This document shows positions 3,539 to 23,258 of a stretch of DNA of 26,876 bases, piece after piece. The notes beneath the pieces are model-generated. The model saw only the letters and a list, made by a program, of their open reading frames with translations, ran no database searches and had not been told where the DNA came from. The DNA lies in the IMG/VR virus record IMGVR_UViG_3300022217_000303, positions 1 through 26,876 of that record. One strand, 5' to 3'. The position numbers and the translations under genes are program-made. Positions within the stretch are counted from its first letter, which is position 1. The number at the start of each line of letters is the position of its first letter. The stretch is from a virus (lineage: Duplodnaviria > Caudoviricetes).

Positions 3539-5092
3539 ATGAAGCAAGGCATATACATCAATCCACATGATTTTGTTGAACTGGGTGAGCTTTCTAATAA
3601 GAGGGAGCTTTCCTGTGAAATCGCTTCAAGAAGCAAGGCCTGGGACTGGACGGACCTGACGGGCCTTCTTCCCGATCCTGATCCCATCCTTCAGAAAATG
3701 GGCCAGGGCGTGGAAGTGCTGGAGTCGCTCACCTCTGACGGCCATCTTTGCGGTGTTATACAGCAAAGAAAGCTTGGCAGCCTTAAGAAAGAATACCGGT
3801 GGGAGCCGGGAACGGTTGGTGATGACGAGCCGACAGAGCAGGCCAAAAAGCTCTGTGAGGCATTACGGGAAGATATGAAAGGGATAGACGTTTATAACCT
3901 TCTGTCGGCCATGCTCGATACGCCCTATTACGGCATGTCTCCATTTGAGCTGATCTGGGAGCCTGACAGCAGCCGCATAAAGCTGAAGGATGTGAGAGCG
4001 CTTCCCTGCCGCTGGTTCGGATTCGATGCAGAGAACGAAATCCGTTTTAAATCTCTGGACCAGCCTGAAGAGGGAGAGGAAATCCCTTACGGCAAGGCGG
4101 TTATTGCCCGCCACTTTCCCACTTATGACAACCCTTATGGGCTCCGGCTCCTGTCCCGCTGTTTTTGGCCGGTGGCTTTCAAAAAGGGCGGCATCAAGTT
4201 CTGGCTCATGATGACGGAAAAATACGGCATGCCCTTTCTCCTCGGCAAGTACCGGCAGGGAGCAACGGAGGCCGAGCAGCAGGAAATGCTTGACCGGCTC
4301 AACGCCATGGTCAAGTCGGCAGTGGCCGTCATTATGGAGGGCGGGTCCATAGAGATGCTCGATGCAAAAGGGAAAGGGGCTTCAGCTGACCTTTATAAAG
4401 GTCTCAAGGACGCAATGGATTATGAAATGTCCAAAGTCATCGTCGGGCAAACATTAACTTCACAGACCGGCGAAGACGGCGGCGGATCATACGCCCTGGG
4501 AAAGGAGCATGGCGATGTGCTCAATGATTTCAGGATCGGTGACCAGAAGCTTGTCAAGAACAGCATGAACCGGATTGCAGAGATCTATGCCGCAGTCAAT
4601 GCACCCGGTGTCGAGCCGCCCGAGTTCTTCTGGTTTGAAGAGGAAGACCCTAAAAAGGAATTTGCCGAGCGGGATAAGACTGTTTCTGAAACTGGCGTCA
4701 AGTTCACTAAGGAGTATTACGTGCGCCGGTACGGATACAAGGAGGATGAGTTTGAGATTTCAACCACCCCTCAGTCCCCTCCTGATCCAGGAGGGGAAGA
4801 TAAGAGTGAGTTTGCCGAGCATAAGGGGGGTAAACGGTTTAGCCCTCAGCAGCAGGCCATCGAGGAGCTGGTTGAAAAAGTAACGAAGCTTGCTGCCGGT
4901 GCGCTGGAAGGAAATGAAAAACTGCTGATGGATATCGTCCTGAAGGCGGAGAGCTACGAAGAGGCCTTTGCTGCATTGCTGGAGGCTTACCCTCAACTGA
5001 AAACTGACGAGCTGGAGGAAGTGGTTTTTCAGTCGGGGTTGAATGCTCATCTTTTTGGCCGGTATACGGTGCAGGAGGAAGGGAAGGAGTGA
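3539..5092 (+). CDS. Mu gp29-like portal protein (DUF935)
   Basis: LPDPDPIL, NPYGLRLLSRCFWP, EKYGMP and SKVIVGQTLT...GSYALGKEH motifs; follows terL. Confidence 0.93.
   Translation: MKQGIYINPHDFVELGELSNKRELSCEIASRSKAWDWTDLTGLLPDPDPILQKMGQGVEVLESLTSDGHLCGVIQQRKLGSLKKEYRWEPGTVGDDEPTEQAKKLCEALREDMKGIDVYNLLSAMLDTPYYGMSPFELIWEPDSSRIKLKDVRALPCRWFGFDAENEIRFKSLDQPEEGEEIPYGKAVIARHFPTYDNPYGLRLLSRCFWPVAFKKGGIKFWLMMTEKYGMPFLLGKYRQGATEAEQQEMLDRLNAMVKSAVAVIMEGGSIEMLDAKGKGASADLYKGLKDAMDYEMSKVIVGQTLTSQTGEDGGGSYALGKEHGDVLNDFRIGDQKLVKNSMNRIAEIYAAVNAPGVEPPEFFWFEEEDPKKEFAERDKTVSETGVKFTKEYYVRRYGYKEDEFEISTTPQSPPDPGGEDKSEFAEHKGGKRFSPQQQAIEELVEKVTKLAAGALEGNEKLLMDIVLKAESYEEAFAALLEAYPQLKTDELEEVVFQSGLNAHLFGRYTVQEEGKE
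4763..4797 (-). repeat. REP-like palindrome inside the portal CDS
   Basis: Perfect 10-bp stem TCCCCTCCTG-ATC-CAGGAGGGGA. On the minus strand it is followed by CTGAGGGGTGGTT, the same layout as the intergenic repeats at 7532 and 11171. Confidence 0.6.
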
Positions 5093-5215
5093 GGCCGGAA
5101 TTTAGCCTCTAATGGGTTTTGTTGTGTTTGTGGGGTAATGCCCCGGAAAATAAAAAAAGCCGGATTTATCGGGATTTTAAAAACGGTTTAAACAGGGTTG
5201 TATAAGGAGGTTGAA

Positions 5216-6112
5216 TTGAAAAAAGGACTTAATGGCTGGATAGAGGTATTCAGGGCGGGAAAGCATACCGATAGCAAGGGTCGGGTGAGGAATTTTACAG
5301 AGACTGACCTCGATCTCATTGCAGGTAAATATGATCCGGCAGGACATGAGGCTCCTGTTGTGATCGGTCACCCCAAATCGAATGGCCCGGCCTATGCCTG
5401 GTTGGAGGGATTAAAACGGGCCGGTAACGTGCTGCTGGCCAAATTTAAGGACGTTAATAAAGACTTTAATGAAATGGTCGAGAGCGGGGCTTTTAAAAAG
5501 CGATCGATTTCCCTCTACCCGGATTTAACAGTTCGACATGTTGGATTCCTGGGAGCCCAGCCGCCGGCCATTAAAGGTCTTAAGGATATCAGCTTTAACG
5601 AAGGTGAGGAGTTTAACGAATATAACTATGAGGAAAAGGAGGAAACAGATATGCCGACAGTAGAGGAATTGCAGGCGCAACTGGATGAGGAAAGAAAGAA
5701 ACGGGAAGCGGCGGAAAAGAACGCCAATAATTTCAAGGAAAAGGCGGACGGTCTGGAGCTGTCTTTCTCAGAGCAGGAGGAAAAGCGCCGCAAGAAAGAT
5801 ATCTCTGATTTTGTCGAGCAGGGTATCAAGGACGGCAAGATTCTTCCCGCCTGGAAAAAGCAGGGACTCGTTGAATTTTTGGAGGCTCTTGAGGGGACTG
5901 AAGGAGAATATGAATTCTCTGAAGGTAAAGACAAGCAGACACCTGCTGCCTGGTTCAAGGGTTTTATCTCTTCATTTTCCGAACATCCGCTTTTTAAGCA
6001 GATGGCCAGGCCGGAGGAAGATGACAAAACGGGTGAAGCTGCCGAGTTTGCCGAGTGTGAAAAGGTGGGTGAAGAAATGGCGGCTATGGTTAATCCGCCG
6101 TCAGGGGATTAA
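5216..6112 (+). CDS. Mu gpI-like prohead protease/scaffold (probable TTG start at 5216)
   Basis: WIEVFRAG, APVVIGHP, PAYAW, FKKRSISLY and HVGFLGAQPPAIKGL motifs; AAGGAGG upstream of TTG 5216; coiled-coil C-terminal half. Confidence 0.88.
   Translation: MKKGLNGWIEVFRAGKHTDSKGRVRNFTETDLDLIAGKYDPAGHEAPVVIGHPKSNGPAYAWLEGLKRAGNVLLAKFKDVNKDFNEMVESGAFKKRSISLYPDLTVRHVGFLGAQPPAIKGLKDISFNEGEEFNEYNYEEKEETDMPTVEELQAQLDEERKKREAAEKNANNFKEKADGLELSFSEQEEKRRKKDISDFVEQGIKDGKILPAWKKQGLVEFLEALEGTEGEYEFSEGKDKQTPAAWFKGFISSFSEHPLFKQMARPEEDDKTGEAAEFAECEKVGEEMAAMVNPPSGD
5651..6112 (+). CDS. Putative nested in-frame scaffolding protein (Mu gpZ-like)
   Basis: AAGGAGG at 5636-5642, 8 nt before an in-frame ATG at the protease/coiled-coil boundary. 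Confidence 0.6.
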   Translation: MPTVEELQAQLDEERKKREAAEKNANNFKEKADGLELSFSEQEEKRRKKDISDFVEQGIKDGKILPAWKKQGLVEFLEALEGTEGEYEFSEGKDKQTPAAWFKGFISSFSEHPLFKQMARPEEDDKTGEAAEFAECEKVGEEMAAMVNPPSGD

Positions 6113-6122
6113 AACGTAAAAC

Positions 6123-6150
6123 GGGCAACCACAGGGGGATTGCCCCAACA
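6123..6150 (-). repeat. REP-like palindrome
   Basis: Minus strand reads TGTTGGGGCAATCCCCCTGTGGTTGCCC; related to 9860-9881 and 3486-3511. Confidence 0.55.
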
Positions 6151-6167
6151 AAAAAATGGAGGATTAA

Positions 6168-6494
6168 ATGACGACCGAATATACAAAGGACAATAAGGCT
6201 TATATAGCTGGGAATTATACTCCACTCACTAAAACTATCGGAGCAGGAGCCAATGAAATTAAGGGAACTATTATGGGCAGGCAAACGGTGGATGGCAAAC
6301 TCTATGCCTATAACTCAGCCAATATTGACGGTACGGAAAATCCCGTTTGTATCCTGGGAGAGGATGCTGCTGCCGCTGCCGCTGATGTTAAAGCTGAAAA
6401 CTGGTTTGCCGGTGTTTATGTAGAAGCAAACATGACCGGTCTCGATGCGGCGGGGAAACTTGCCCTGGAAGCCAGGGGAATCTATTTCGTTTAA
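6168..6494 (+). CDS. Head decoration protein (lambda gpD-like)
   Basis: GTIMGR...DGTENPVCIL motif and LEARGIYF C-terminus; directly upstream of the capsid gene. Confidence 0.8.
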   Translation: MTTEYTKDNKAYIAGNYTPLTKTIGAGANEIKGTIMGRQTVDGKLYAYNSANIDGTENPVCILGEDAAAAAADVKAENWFAGVYVEANMTGLDAAGKLALEARGIYFV

Positions 6495-6526
6495 TTCTTA
6501 ACTTATTAATTTTGGAGGTTTAAAAA

Positions 6527-7516
6527 ATGGCAGATACAGTTTTTAATTATCGTACGCTTACAGCGGGGATTAATAAGATGAGGACCGTTAAAACACCGGT
6601 GCTCGATAAGGTTTTTGGTCGAAAGAAAAGACAGCTCTCGTCAATGTTTAAGTGGGACATTAAGTCGAATGCCGAAAGAATCCTAAAAAATATCAAGGTC
6701 AGTGCTCCTGCCCAGGTGCAGGACAAAACAGGGCGCAAGACCGTTACTTGTGAAGCGCCCAGGTATGCGCCTAAACGCTTCATAGCAACGGGAGATCTGG
6801 ACGCAATGCGTGCCTATGGTTCTGAAGCCCCTGAACTTATGAAAGAGCGTGTTGCCGAGGAACAGTCTGACATGAAGGAAGATGTCGATCGCACCCGTGA
6901 ATTCCAGGCTGTTGAGGCAATAAAGGGAACGGTAGTGGATGAAGAAGGTAATGTCATTGTGAGTTATAACTTTAGTGCTGAACAAATGCCTGTGTTGGCA
7001 GGAATTGAGCTCTGGACTGATCCGGCTAGTAATCCGGTAAAAAAAATAAGGGGTTGGAAAAAGTGGATTTCACACAGGGTCACTGTCGATAAGTTTATTG
7101 CCTTTTGTGGAAGTGGTGCTATGGATGCCCTTATTGATAATCCGAAGGCCCTGGAACTACTCAAATATAATGCAGGGAAGCAGATAGCTGAAGAAGGCCG
7201 TATTGCATCCCTCGCGGCAGTTGATATTGAAGAATATTTCGGGACTTATAAGAATGCTGCTGAAGACATAATAGAGATGATTCCTGATGACGCCTTTATT
7301 CTTATTGGTCTAAGTGCTAAAGCTGCCGCCGAACTCTTTGCACCTATTGCTGATTCTAAAGCGGCGGGAGGCATTGGAAATGGCAAGCCAGGGCAGGTTT
7401 TTGCATCAAAGGCCTGGGATGAGGAAGATCCTGATGGTAAGTGGATCAAAGCGGAAAGTCGTCCACTGCCGGTACTATTTATGCCTGAGTGCGTCGTCTA
7501 CGCCAGGGTAATTTAA
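6527..7516 (+). CDS. Major capsid protein (lambda gpE-like family)
   Basis: 329 aa; LTAGIN, RTREFQA, WTDPASNP and EEDPDGKWIKAESRPLPV motifs; strong RBS. Confidence 0.88.
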   Translation: MADTVFNYRTLTAGINKMRTVKTPVLDKVFGRKKRQLSSMFKWDIKSNAERILKNIKVSAPAQVQDKTGRKTVTCEAPRYAPKRFIATGDLDAMRAYGSEAPELMKERVAEEQSDMKEDVDRTREFQAVEAIKGTVVDEEGNVIVSYNFSAEQMPVLAGIELWTDPASNPVKKIRGWKKWISHRVTVDKFIAFCGSGAMDALIDNPKALELLKYNAGKQIAEEGRIASLAAVDIEEYFGTYKNAAEDIIEMIPDDAFILIGLSAKAAAELFAPIADSKAAGGIGNGKPGQVFASKAWDEEDPDGKWIKAESRPLPVLFMPECVVYARVI

Positions 7517-7531
7517 CAAAAACCTCTTTTG

Positions 7532-7565
7532 TCCCCCTTTAGTAAAGGGGGATTGAGGGGGATTT
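7532..7565 (+). repeat. REP-like palindromic repeat
   Basis: TCCCCCTTT-AGT-AAAGGGGGA-TTGAGGGGGATTT, nearly identical to 11171-11204. Confidence 0.75.
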
Positions 7566-7582
7566 AAAGGAGGTAATAATTT

Positions 7583-7993
7583 ATGTCTGAAGAAAAAATC
7601 TATTACGGCAAGGTCAAGACCGGCATGATCGACCTGGGACCGAAGGAGGAAGACAAATATCTCCCTGGTTCTATGGTGCCGCTCAGTAAAAAGGACTATG
7701 ACCGGCTGCTTAAGAAGGGAGTCATTTCTCCCGGTAAAGCGCCTGAAGAGAAATCCGATGCAGGAGATATGACGGGAAAGGCAAAGGCCCTTCTCGATGC
7801 TTCCACTGTTGAGGGTGGCCCTGAACTTTCTCCGGAAATCAGAGCTTCCCTGGAAGCGGTTGTGGCCGGTGAGGTGATAGGTTCGGGTAAGCCTAAAGTG
7901 GAAACACTGGAGGCGATCCTGAAGCGGGAGATGGACGCTAAAGAACGTGATGCTATCTGGAAAGACGTGGAGAAGCTTTTAAGTGAAGGTTAA
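7583..7993 (+). CDS. Hypothetical post-capsid protein (Mu gp35 position)
   Basis: AAGGAGGT RBS; C-terminal GKPKVETLE...ERDAIW module; position after the capsid gene. Confidence 0.7.
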   Translation: MSEEKIYYGKVKTGMIDLGPKEEDKYLPGSMVPLSKKDYDRLLKKGVISPGKAPEEKSDAGDMTGKAKALLDASTVEGGPELSPEIRASLEAVVAGEVIGSGKPKVETLEAILKREMDAKERDAIWKDVEKLLSEG

Positions 7994-9236
7994 ACCTGAA
8001 CCGTTGACGAATAAAGAGGCCGTCGCTTTCTGGGGAGATAAGATCCTTCTCTCCCCAGGCGACTATGCCTCACTTACGGATGAGGCGAAACTCCATGCCT
8101 TTTCCGTTTCCGGTATTGCCAGAGGTTCGGAGTTGACAACGGTCTATGAATCGCTGCAAAAGGCCCTGAATGACGGCATTACTTATGACCAGTTCAAAAA
8201 GTCTGCAGCCGAAGTTTTTGAGAAAAGAGGCTGGACGGGAAAGCGTGCATGGAGGGTAGATAATATCTTTCGAACCAACGTCCAGCAGGCCTACAGCATA
8301 GGCCGTTATAAGCAGATGAAGGCTGTTACCGATTTGCGGCCTTACTGGATGTATGACGCTGTTAACGACAGTGGAACGAGGCCGACACATAGGGCATTAA
8401 ACGGCAAGGTCTATCCGGCTGATCATCCCTTCTGGGATACCTGGTATCCGTTAAACGGATTCAGGTGCCGTTGCGGTGCGACAACATTGTCTGAAAGACA
8501 GCTTAAAAAGAAAGGTCTCAAGGTAGAGACAAAAGATTTAACGGGAATGCTCATCGAACCTGAATTGCCGAATGGGACAAAACTTCCGGCCAGGCTTTTA
8601 ATGCCTGATCCCGGTTTTTCCTACCATCCGGGAAAGCAGGTTTATGGCGGGCTCGTTGAAAATGAAAAGCCGGGTGTTTGGAGATCTCTTCCCGGCATAA
8701 AAAAACCTGCCCATTACAGGCGACGGGATTTAAAGAACGTCCGCCCGGCAGATATCGATGATATTAGTGCAACGCAACTCCTTAAGAAGGGGGAAGGTGA
8801 TGCTTTTTACAAGAGTGAATTTATCAAGCGCTACGGTGAAGAGAAGGTCTTAACGGATGCTAACCGTGATCCGGTTATTTTATCGCTCAGATCATTCCTG
8901 GTTGATAAAACGCCGGGAGCAAAAGAGGTATGGAAGTTCGGCAAATCGGGACACGGGGAAAGCATACCCCTGCTGGCTGAAATGATCGAAAAGCCCTATG
9001 AAATATGGCTGACGCCCCAGGTGAATGAAGACGGCAGGATCAGGTTGAGCAAGCGCTATGTTTCGCTATGGAAAAGCCCTGACAAGAAGAAAGTGGGCGG
9101 CTTGATGGTCTTTGAAGTGGATGGCGGCGTATTCAGGGGCGTAACGGCCTTTATCCCTTTAAAGAAAGGTGAGCCTGATTTGAAATATGCGGAAAGGGTA
9201 AGGGAAGGTTTATTGCTGTGGGGTAAAGGGCGTTGA
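7983..9236 (+). CDS. MuF/SPP1 gp7 head morphogenesis protein with C-terminal PBECR2-like predicted RNase domain
   Basis: IFRTNVQQAYSIGR, YDAVNDSGTRPTH and YPLNGFRCRC MuF motifs. The C-terminal extension has PYEIW, KRYV, GVTAF and REGLLLW, a pattern recognised by eye as BECR-fold PBECR2. Confidence 0.82.
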   Translation: MKVKPEPLTNKEAVAFWGDKILLSPGDYASLTDEAKLHAFSVSGIARGSELTTVYESLQKALNDGITYDQFKKSAAEVFEKRGWTGKRAWRVDNIFRTNVQQAYSIGRYKQMKAVTDLRPYWMYDAVNDSGTRPTHRALNGKVYPADHPFWDTWYPLNGFRCRCGATTLSERQLKKKGLKVETKDLTGMLIEPELPNGTKLPARLLMPDPGFSYHPGKQVYGGLVENEKPGVWRSLPGIKKPAHYRRRDLKNVRPADIDDISATQLLKKGEGDAFYKSEFIKRYGEEKVLTDANRDPVILSLRSFLVDKTPGAKEVWKFGKSGHGESIPLLAEMIEKPYEIWLTPQVNEDGRIRLSKRYVSLWKSPDKKKVGGLMVFEVDGGVFRGVTAFIPLKKGEPDLKYAERVREGLLLWGKGR

Positions 9237-9312
9237 CCGGCCTGACGCACAAACCGGCAGCTTGCAGCTGTTCAGGCCGGGGTGGTCCCCCTACACTGCA
9301 AGTTCCCTCAAT
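9228..9312 (-). ncRNA. Candidate pseudoknotted small RNA convergent with the MuF-nuclease gene
   Basis: Interleaved stems 9237-9245/9272-9280 and 9261-9267/9296-9302, plus a GGGG-N4-CCCC hairpin, directly downstream of a minus-strand promoter. Confidence 0.55.
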
Positions 9313-9318
9313 AAAACA

Positions 9319-9347
9319 AGTATAACCTCCCTTTAATGAGAGGTCAA
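9319..9347 (-). promoter_or_regulatory. Antisense sigma70-type promoter
   Basis: Minus strand TTGACC (9347-9342), 17-bp spacer, TATACT (9324-9319). Confidence 0.72.
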
Positions 9348-9360
9348 GAGGAGTAAATCA

Positions 9361-9780
9361 ATGCTTTACTGTGACGCAGGCGACATGACGGACCACGTGC
9401 TGCAAGCCTATATTGACAAGGCGAATGAATTGAATGCGGGCGCTGACAACAGGGCCATTAGTTCCGTCTCCGGAGAGATCGATGACGCCTTACGGCCCTG
9501 GTATGAATTGCCGCTTTCAACAGTCCCTGAAACACTGAAAGTGCTTTGCGCGGTTCTTTCCGCCTGGCGGGTGATAGCGCCAATCGCTTCCCTCATGAAT
9601 GAGCAGGAATTTAAACACATAAAGGAAGCGGAACGGGTGCAGAGGGAAAAGCTAAAAAGCATCGCCAAAGGCCTCGATGTGGGCCTTACGAAAACAGGGG
9701 CAGTCAGTACCGATAAATCATCATTTCAAACGATTTCTCCGGAGAGGACCTTTGATGATGATTTGCTGGATAAATATTAG
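9361..9780 (+). CDS. Mu gp36/J-like head-tail connector (DUF1320)
   Basis: MLYC...AISSVSGEIDDALRPWYELPL..VPETLK...LKSIAKG pattern. Confidence 0.82.
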   Translation: MLYCDAGDMTDHVLQAYIDKANELNAGADNRAISSVSGEIDDALRPWYELPLSTVPETLKVLCAVLSAWRVIAPIASLMNEQEFKHIKEAERVQREKLKSIAKGLDVGLTKTGAVSTDKSSFQTISPERTFDDDLLDKY

Positions 9781-10409: not shown

Positions 10410-10917
10410 GAGCGCTTGCCAAATCGATAGTTGAAACGGCTGCGAGTGCGGCAGGTATGCCGGTAGCAAATGTCATGGAAAAGCCTGATAAAGCCAGCGC
10501 CCTTCATCCTCTGCCCAGGCTTGAATTTGAAACGCCGGATCAGGACGTTAAGCGTAATAAACGGCTCTTTTGCAAACTTCCCGCGGCTGATCCCGATTAT
10601 GTCGTTCACCGCTATATTACCCATGACATTACCGTCAAGGCGCGGGTCGAGATTATCGGAGATAGCGCTGATTACGTGGAAAGCTTTTTTGTGGCATTTA
10701 TGCAGGCCCTGCCGGGCAAGACCGTTGATGCCGGGAATAACCTGGTAACGGTCAGGCCCGAGCGCGCCGCTACGGGCGGTTATGAATACAGGGCAATTGA
10801 CGCCTTTCCGAAAGGCGCATACCGGTTTGGATAACAGTTAAAGGGGGGCTTTATGAAGATGTAGAAGTCCCTTATGTAAAGAGTATTAACCTGGTTGACG
10901 GTATTAACTATAAATAA
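10406..10917 (+). pseudogene. Neck/tail-completion-position gene with an apparent -1 frameshift near 10810-10820
   Basis: Frame 0 stops at 10834. The -1 frame continues RRIPVWITVKGGLYEDVEVPYVKSINLVDGINYK to TAA 10915-10917, which abuts the next gene's RBS. Confidence 0.6.
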
Positions 10918-10928
10918 GGAGGAAAACT

Positions 10929-11165
10929 ATGGCAAAGGGAAAAGATGAGAAGGGAAAGTCGGTGCAGAAGCCCGTTAAAAAGCCGGTTAAAGAGCCTTTG
11001 AAGGCCGTTGAAGATCTGGCGGCGGAAAAGAGTTTGCAAAGATGGGAACTTGCTGCCCTTCGGCATGCAACTGGCTGGCTGGAAGGAAAGCAGGTAAAAG
11101 CATCGGAGTTTGATGATGCCCTTGAAAGGTTTAGGTGCCGCCGTCAGGGATCGGGAAAGTTATAA
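10929..11165 (+). CDS. Small hypothetical protein preceding the tail sheath
   Basis: TAAGGAGG RBS; 78 aa; position in the tail operon. Confidence 0.75.
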   Translation: MAKGKDEKGKSVQKPVKKPVKEPLKAVEDLAAEKSLQRWELAALRHATGWLEGKQVKASEFDDALERFRCRRQGSGKL

Positions 11166-11170
11166 AAACC

Positions 11171-11253
11171 TCCCCCTTTGAAAAAGGGGGATTGAGGGGG
11201 ATTTTCTGAGTATATGCCAAATCCCCCCTGGCCCCCTTTACTAAAGTGGGGGA
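11171..11253. repeat. Inverted pair of REP-like repeats (REPIN/BIME-like doublet)
   Basis: 11171-11204 is a forward copy and 11219-11253 an inverted, diverged copy of the 7532 element. Confidence 0.7.
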
Positions 11254-22496: not shown

Positions 22497-23258
22497 ATGT
22501 CAAAACCTGTTATTCCATGGATCGGCGGAAAACGCCGACTTGCAAAGAGAATTCTTCCCCTTTTTCCTGATCATGAATGTTATGTAGAACCCTTTTGTGG
22601 GGCTGCGGCATTGTTTTTCATGAAAAAACCGGCACAGTCGGAAGTGTTGAATGATATTAACCTGGAACTGGCCAGTTTTTACAGGGTATTAAAACACCAT
22701 TTAGATGAGTTTATAAAACAGTTTAAATGGACCCTGGTTCACAGGGAAATCTTTAAATGGCTCCAGGACACCCCGCCGGAAACACTCACCGATATCCAAC
22801 GTGCAGCCCGGTTTTATTATCTCCAGAAACTCGCATTTGGCGGTAAGGTAGATAGCCAGACCTATGGCACCGCAACAACTAGTAAACCACGTCTCAATCT
22901 TCTCCGTATTGAAGAGGACCTTAGCCAGGCATGGCTGAGGCTGGCCAGAGTTCATATAGAAAGTATGGACTGGAAGAAGTGTATTTCTAAATATGACCGC
23001 AAGCACACTCTTGCATATTTAGACCCTCCTTATTACGGCACAGAAGGATATGGCGTCGCCTTCAATCTTGAGGAATATAGCATAATGGCAGATATGGCCA
23101 GATCGATTAAAGGAAAGATGATCATCAGCGTAAACGATATCCCGGAAATGAGAAGAGCCTTTAAAGGGTTGAGTATGGATACGGTGAAAATTAAGTATAC
23201 AGTCGGAGGCAATGATAAGGCAGTGAACAGGAGGGAACTGATTATCAAGAGCTGGTAA
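22497..23258 (+). CDS. dam: D12-class N6-adenine DNA methyltransferase (Dam-like)
   Basis: PWIGGK, YVEPFCGAA (SAM binding), EVLND and YLDPPY (catalytic) motifs; TAAGGAGGT RBS. Target specificity unknown. Confidence 0.9.
   Translation: MSKPVIPWIGGKRRLAKRILPLFPDHECYVEPFCGAAALFFMKKPAQSEVLNDINLELASFYRVLKHHLDEFIKQFKWTLVHREIFKWLQDTPPETLTDIQRAARFYYLQKLAFGGKVDSQTYGTATTSKPRLNLLRIEEDLSQAWLRLARVHIESMDWKKCISKYDRKHTLAYLDPPYYGTEGYGVAFNLEEYSIMADMARSIKGKMIISVNDIPEMRRAFKGLSMDTVKIKYTVGGNDKAVNRRELIIKSW

Follow-up and report, generated by a model that had tools for sequence, protein, structure and literature searches.

A predicted antisense RNA gene with a kissing-loop fold behind the MuF-PBECR2 gene of a Mu-like prophage: a candidate RNA antitoxin for a predicted virion-borne nuclease

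Genes for MuF proteins with toxin domains usually have an immunity ORF directly behind them, and the available part of PMC5576092 reports a small downstream ORF after 89.4% of 191 MuF toxin genes. What stands in this place when the ORF is missing is the question raised by the locus described here. The window, i.e. the whole stretch of 26,876 nucleotides that was analysed, corresponds to the late part of a Mu-like prophage, with portal, capsid, muF, gp36 and tail genes. The muF gene (7983-9236, plus strand) sits in the late operon and encodes a 417-aa protein, in which Pfam recognises only Phage_Mu_F (aa 53-165, E 2.9e-20) and a C-terminal PBECR2 domain (PF18810; aa 279-413, positions 8817-9221, plus strand, E 1.6e-19), a predicted RNase. 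The window thus holds the combination typical of MuF toxin modules, MuF with a C-terminal toxin domain in a temperate phage, and no small immunity ORF was found directly 3' of muF. Beyond a gap of 124 bp, the next gene (9361-9780, plus strand) encodes a Mu gp36-like head-tail adaptor (PF07030, E 7.4e-11) instead of an immunity protein. ORFs of 30, 33 and 64 aa are the only ones that reach into the gap, and none of them is conserved. A preliminary description, made from the sequence alone, had proposed a MuF-PBECR nuclease gene that lacks an immunity ORF and is paired with a pseudoknotted antisense RNA as a candidate antitoxin. The gene for a predicted nuclease and the missing ORF were both borne out, and the search of the C-terminus against the PBECR families, which it had suggested as a check, returned PBECR2 at 70.7 bits (cut-off 27.1).

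According to the available part of PMC5512222, PBECR domains (PF18810) carry a His in a helix and a Thr in a strand, their activity is predicted only, as many as 26% of polyvalent proteins contain them, and these proteins are predicted to be packaged and injected. The muF product is a member of this group: His324 and Thr388 fall on the conserved positions of the PBECR2 family (His/Arg in the helix, Ser/Thr in the strand) and are nearly invariant across 72 aligned homologues. The AlphaFold (AF2) model of the nuclease is confident (pLDDT 90.8), and a structure search with this model gave ribonuclease toxins in the top rows, as weak matches (best Z 3.5); no relative with a solved structure was found by sequence. 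The same part of PMC5512222 calls the Mu gp30 domain inactive and mentions no RNA partner of PBECR proteins (0 occurrences of 'noncoding').

Three further observations concern the surroundings of the gene. In the window, muF comes after the capsid genes and before gp36 (3539-9780), whereas in Mu it directly follows the portal gene; with this different placement, the RNA described below has moved along with muF. The phage tail region ends with an adenine methyltransferase gene (22497-23258), and a host diguanylate cyclase gene comes next. Two intergenic sites (7532-7565 and 11171-11204) carry the same 34-nt palindromic repeat, of which there is also an inverted copy (11223-11250).

The comparison of homologous loci predicts a structured non-coding RNA of ~82 nt on the minus strand of the gap (9227-9308), folded as a three-way junction with a kissing loop (covariance-model match of 41.6 bits, E 2.7e-8). 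Its 5' end is predicted near 9312-9309, and at the 3' end it extends into the final codons of muF; a terminator was not found there, either in the window or at the homologue loci. In the homologues, with pairing values taken from the alignment made by the covariance model described below, the closing stem P0 (9308-9305 with 9230-9227; 90% of cells paired, 4/4 pairs compensatory) overlaps the last muF codons. Stem P2 (9302-9296 with 9267-9261; 95.3% paired, 8/8 compensatory) carries the hairpin P3 (9279-9290; 98.7% paired), in which 3 bp close the 6-nt loop L3 (9287-9282). The 8-bp hairpin P1 (9236-9258; 92.7% paired, 8/8 compensatory), with its 7-nt loop L1 (9250-9244), adjoins the stop codon. 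All of these elements are on the minus strand.

The homologues came from scans of viral, metagenome and genome collections, which gave 220 loci. Among these, 147 were unique loci whose ORF was closed and whose downstream sequence was present; 58 of them are close and 89 distant, and 53 of the 58 close loci were aligned after excluding one truncated locus, two without an anchor and two with the RNA deleted. Over the whole fold, 92.9% of 1343 cells in the alignment made by the covariance model were paired, against 70.4% after shuffling, and 24 of 25 pairs had compensatory changes, both values leaning high because the alignment was fitted to the structure and the sequences are related. The kissing pairs between L3 and L1 are absent from the covariance model; they were paired in 93.5% of 263 cells, with compensatory changes in 4 of 5 pairs, a result matched by 0 of 500 shuffles. 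With a hand-set register, which covered 46 of the 53 rows and omitted the other 7, kissing pairs formed in 94 of 96 cases (0 of 10000 permutations); in the MAFFT register, which is off by one in most rows, the count was 85 of 156, equalled by 66 of 5000 permutations. A compensatory change in the kiss is present in the window itself. G-U pairs favour the minus over the plus strand by 35:5 in P1 and 6:0 in P3, and the RNA was therefore assigned to the minus strand.

A covariance model trained on 10 sequences, with the window left out, recognised the RNA in 56 of the 63 loci searched, most of which are close homologues, and found the window once, at 9308-9227. The misses were L014, L082, L087, L089, L094 and L142 (L numbers denote loci) as well as L267, a chance pattern match. 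There was no significant match in 97 distant or control loci or in 80 further MuF loci, which marks the fold as clade-specific, and a covariance-model search with the window RNA gave no match to an Rfam family or to tRNA.

Chance hairpins beside a chance promoter match would explain why the window fold taken alone (79-91 nt) does not go beyond chance (z -1.3 to -1.6), and 4.1 promoter-like sites are expected by chance in 4 kb. This explanation is refuted by the covariation and is further opposed by the covariance-model matches, the kissing pairs and the conservation of the promoter in homologues, so its probability is negligible. The evidence for the fold is comparative. Single-sequence z-scores separate the locus groups poorly (medians -0.1 to -1.3), RNAalifold on the plain alignment recovered P1 and P3 only, and a 150-nt rod fold of the window (z -4.4) relies on an unconserved 9-bp stem. 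These comparisons between homologues show a conserved RNA gene on the minus strand of the window, tertiary fold included.

This fold agrees only in part with the one first drawn, an H-type pseudoknot made of a 7-bp stem (9296-9302 with 9261-9267) and a 9-bp stem (9272-9280 with 9237-9245). Both stems are present in the window. The 7-bp stem, which is P2, is conserved and covaries (mean 6.45 of 7 pairs versus 4.59 with swapped partners, 53 loci), and the proposed AGGG/CCCU closure proved to be the conserved P0. Of the 53 loci, 1 has a perfect 9-bp stem, namely the window, and conservation thus does not extend to the H-type pseudoknot; the pseudoknot shared by the homologues is the kissing loop (9282-9287 with 9244-9250). 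An inner hairpin does exist, and consists of 3 bp closing a 6-nt loop instead of GGGG-ACCA-CCCC. A guide function, also considered at that stage, is unlikely, since all variable sequence of the RNA is base-paired and no unpaired variable stretch is left.

A sigma70-type antisense promoter, TTGACC-17-TATACT, is present on the minus strand at 9319-9347 as first described (-35 at 9347-9342, -10 at 9324-9319; 10 of 12 matches). Homologue promoters were rated by our own promoter score with a threshold of 11.5. A score of at least 11.5 was found 5' of the RNA in 44 of 55 homologue loci, compared with 1/55 on the opposite strand and 0/53 farther off, and the -35 region starts with TTG in 53 of 55 loci. 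The antisense promoter is conserved among homologues. Of the four outcomes named beforehand as refuting the earlier reading, a lack of structural conservation 3' of homologues was thus not observed. The frame opened by a conserved loop triplet (GUG) extends over 2-174 codons across 56 homologues, and the length of the RNA takes all three values modulo 3; the gap therefore has no conserved coding sequence, and an antisense ORF starting at this GUG was rejected on the same grounds. A hairpin over the promoter spacer (9323-9346) has a terminator-like score on the minus strand and may be an operator or chance. Another minus-strand promoter-like site (10/12) lies in the tail region at 10907-10935. 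At L165, a 98-aa antisense ORF was observed between the muF stop and the RNA (~20-320 nt past the stop). As it lies 3' of the RNA on the RNA's strand, the transcript can run on and the promoter can carry a cargo gene.

The converse question, which MuF genes carry an RNA, was approached with the best 80 of 600 MuF loci, chosen on the N-terminal domain alone: 29 short, 49 long and 2 cut off. The long ones, grouped by Pfam and by eye, comprised 20 MuF_C-like (14 with a Pfam match), 19 PBECR3-like (11 with a match), 8 PBECR2, one other and one truncated PBECR2 without RNA. Short MuF genes in this set were followed by a gap of at most 58 nt in 29/29 cases, by a promoter-like score in 1/29 and by no RNA. 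Where the MuF_C protein lacks the HxDSxKH motif (8/8), the gene runs directly up to its neighbour and has no RNA, and the Mu gene does the same, with the inactive domain kept; the RNA is absent from Mu and BcepMu. MuF_C genes with the motif had an antisense RNA in 12/12 cases within this set (the gap measured 85-127 nt in 11 of them, and L300 was judged by eye), with a T-loop in 9/12 and a promoter score in 9/12, versus 0/8 without the motif. The preliminary description had called for comparison with nuclease-less MuF genes, and in these and the His-less genes structure and promoter were indeed absent; a second of its four refuting outcomes, an RNA equally present beside such genes, was therefore not observed either.

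The RNAs of the sister MuF_C family resemble tRNAs. Three of nine searched loci with the motif exceeded the Rfam tRNA (RF00005) cut-off, at the stop codon and on the minus strand, and RefSeq labels one such antisense RNA after a His-intact gene 'tRNA-OTHER'. These tRNA-like RNAs directly follow His-bearing MuF_C genes and are missing in Mu and other His-less relatives. They keep the D- and T-loops, and differ from tRNA in lengthened acceptor stems and irregular anticodon arms, whereas the window RNA has no tRNA match and Watson-Crick kissing loops. Lengthened acceptor stems were seen in tRNA-like antisense RNAs at L302, L305, L325, L326, L333, L336, L338 and L351:1239-1326.

Complementary loops on a three-way junction recall the phi29 pRNA, and the RNA lies among head genes, so a general structural or packaging RNA with intermolecular loop pairing, or a regulator of the downstream gene, was also considered. 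Its absence from the 29 short-MuF and 8 His-less loci, from Mu and from BcepMu, and its constant linkage to muF irrespective of the next gene (gp36, G or protease), largely refute this explanation, which we regard as very improbable. In a DNA pattern scan that was blind to the protein, 13 of 14 viral matches lay beside MuF-PBECR2.

On the N-terminal tree, joint loss of RNA and motif required 5 changes, of which no fewer than 4 were forced; the C-terminal tree required 3, with 1 forced. RNA is also missing at L143/L144, where the conserved Arg and Thr are changed. Across MuF families, the presence of such RNAs tracks that of an intact catalytic motif. At L082/L083 the whole RNA is lost and the promoter decayed, and the C-terminal 190 aa are identical to those of L009 at 189 positions; at L087 the RNA is cleanly deleted with His and Thr intact. 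The deletion in L082/L083 is clean, between 6-nt direct repeats, beside an intact-looking protein. Defective prophages could tolerate such RNA loss with an intact protein.

An orphan copy was found by targeted search. Over 151 genomes screened with stricter filters, the covariance model matched only the window's genome and G016, a complete genome in which no homologue of the nuclease domain was found. The match lies in contig C1 of G016 in an oversize insert of 141 nt (L353:7929-8069, also L352:1501-1583), which occupies unit 51 of a CRISPR array that is type I-E-like and has 69 repeats, and the last 3 nt of the repeat before it are missing. The insert contains the whole RNA, its promoter, two muF codons and the start of the next gene. 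This single case shows the RNA unit kept without its protein gene.

We consider it somewhat probable that the RNA is a trans-acting antitoxin or decoy for the virion-borne predicted RNase, and the RNA-antitoxin interpretation of the preliminary description is to this extent partly supported. The RNA would take the place of the immunity ORF usual after MuF toxin genes, a position that the conserved RNA occupies in MuF-PBECR2 loci. Its host-type promoter would keep production constant in the lysogen, and the RNA would bind the nuclease, presumably a toxic RNase, directly by its shape, as a decoy of a tRNA-like target; this tRNA mimicry is borrowed from the sister MuF_C family, as the RNA of the window family has no tRNA match. 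Such binding would protect the cell during MuF synthesis and packaging, and the lysogen from nuclease injected by kin phages, and the nuclease would enter a naive cell free of RNA. Since no terminator follows the RNA, the nuclease might also trim its 3' end. The loss of the RNA with an apparently intact protein in L082/L083 and L087 runs counter to an antitoxin and is what a cargo model predicts as well; joint loss would be equally expected if the RNA were a substrate or cargo. A counterpart of the RNA was not found for RcapMu by sequence in the sRNA table of the available part of PMC5546546.

It is less likely, with a probability that still deserves attention, that the RNA is itself a payload or cofactor, which PBECR binds and trims from a longer antisense transcript and which is packaged and injected as an RNP, one possible role being that of a tRNA-shaped decoy for the host's anti-phage tRNases or for other defences that sense RNA. 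The absent terminator, the RNA being lost first from L082/L083 and L087 with the protein intact, and the packaging and injection predicted for such proteins in the available part of PMC5512222 agree with a payload, and joint loss with the His motif fits it equally well. However, late packaging needs no constitutive host-type promoter, the RNA is placed where immunity genes sit, the nuclease-free G016 orphan would be without a maturase, and Mu retains its inactive domain without RNA.

Rather improbable, in our judgement, is a type I-like effect in cis, in which convergent transcription into the muF 3' end shuts off toxin mRNA that leaks through in the lysogen, with the fold serving only to stabilise the RNA. 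An RNA that overlaps the muF stop without a terminator, the ORF at L165, by which the transcript can continue, and the tracking of active toxins would all be expected of it. Every antisense RNA can pair with the mRNA opposite it, which leaves the covarying kissing loop and the retained tRNA elbow unexplained; moreover, muF is in a late operon, and the G016 orphan has two muF codons and no target. The structured part of the window RNA is convergent to muF and overlaps it by about 10 nt. Toxins of type I systems are small hydrophobic peptides, whereas the muF product is a 417-aa virion protein.

Known systems close to the proposed trans-acting antitoxin include type III toxin-antitoxins (ToxIN, CptIN, TenpIN), which, according to the available part of PMC3401426, share with the locus a protein RNase (predicted here), a small pseudoknotted RNA, a constitutive promoter (host-type here) and the lack of an antitoxin ORF. 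Compared with that same source, the window RNA is single-copy, downstream, convergent and separately promoted, without tandem repeats or an intervening terminator; the predicted toxin, a BECR domain, forms part of a virion protein, and the fold is a kissing-loop junction and not an H-type pseudoknot. No tandem repeat array was found near muF, and Pfam finds MuF and PBECR2 only and no ToxN/AbiQ-family toxin, whereas a pseudoknotted non-coding RNA partner, of kissing-loop type, is present. By analogy, the system may work like a type III antitoxin, yet it fails the locus criteria of that family. The likeness to ToxI drawn in the preliminary description thus holds as an analogy and does not extend to copy number, position, orientation, promoter or repeats. 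With the MuF polymorphic toxins in the available part of PMC5576092, the locus shares MuF with a C-terminal predicted toxin, the head module of a temperate phage and a partner right after the stop, but the partner here is an opposite-strand non-coding RNA and not a small ORF. The DUF3800, drum and skipping-rope RNA motifs (available part of PMC5737381) also tie several unrelated folds to one protein domain in either orientation; their protein is different and they often end in a terminator, and the window RNA has no Rfam match. The window architecture is matched by no system compared.

No report of this RNA was found in the literature, although it may exist as an unnamed entry in the viral candidate-RNA catalogue PMC10690425. 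The term 'RNA antitoxin' has no occurrence in the available part of a BECR preprint (10.64898/2026.08.28.747851). If the antitoxin reading is true, the RNA would be the first RNA immunity factor for a virion-carried toxin; we know of no earlier one. The PBECR domain would gain a testable partner and, in the tRNA-shaped RNA, a hint at its target, and RNA antitoxins would extend from abortive-infection operons to virion-delivered polymorphic toxins. It would also account for the antisense 'tRNA-OTHER' annotations in Mu-like prophages and for the missing partner of the inactive gp30 domain of Mu, and several new RNA folds would be co-evolving with one protein fold. More broadly, we see an even balance for and against the proposal that virion-delivered BECR RNases with a tRNA-derived or tRNA-shaped RNA form a widespread, undescribed class in Mu-like phages, with clade-specific folds from near-tRNA to kissing-loop junction, in which the RNA is the immunity factor and can be captured by hosts as an orphan defence gene.

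Other structured blocks follow distant PBECR2 and PBECR3-like genes, where promoter scores were found in 42/89 and 6/19 loci. PBECR3-like genes have a conserved structured block of their own behind the stop, with a long closing stem and a recurring 5-nt loop complement (L280, L287, L293, L294, L329, L342, L225, L229, L230, L253). An automatic loop-complement test, suggestive only, was positive in 23/87 distant PBECR2 loci (near-duplicates included), 9/51 close loci and 0 elsewhere. PBECR4 was found in 0/401 genomes, and a viral scan with a single protein as query gave no matches. Weak stand-alone PBECR2-like matches at L049, L053, L056 and L057 are followed by an overlapping same-strand ORF and no RNA, an arrangement that resembles type II toxin-antitoxin pairs. 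Finally, two distinct structured units in tandem were seen by eye before the promoter at L020, L028, L150, L164, L168 and L170, and these might be stacked immunity RNAs.
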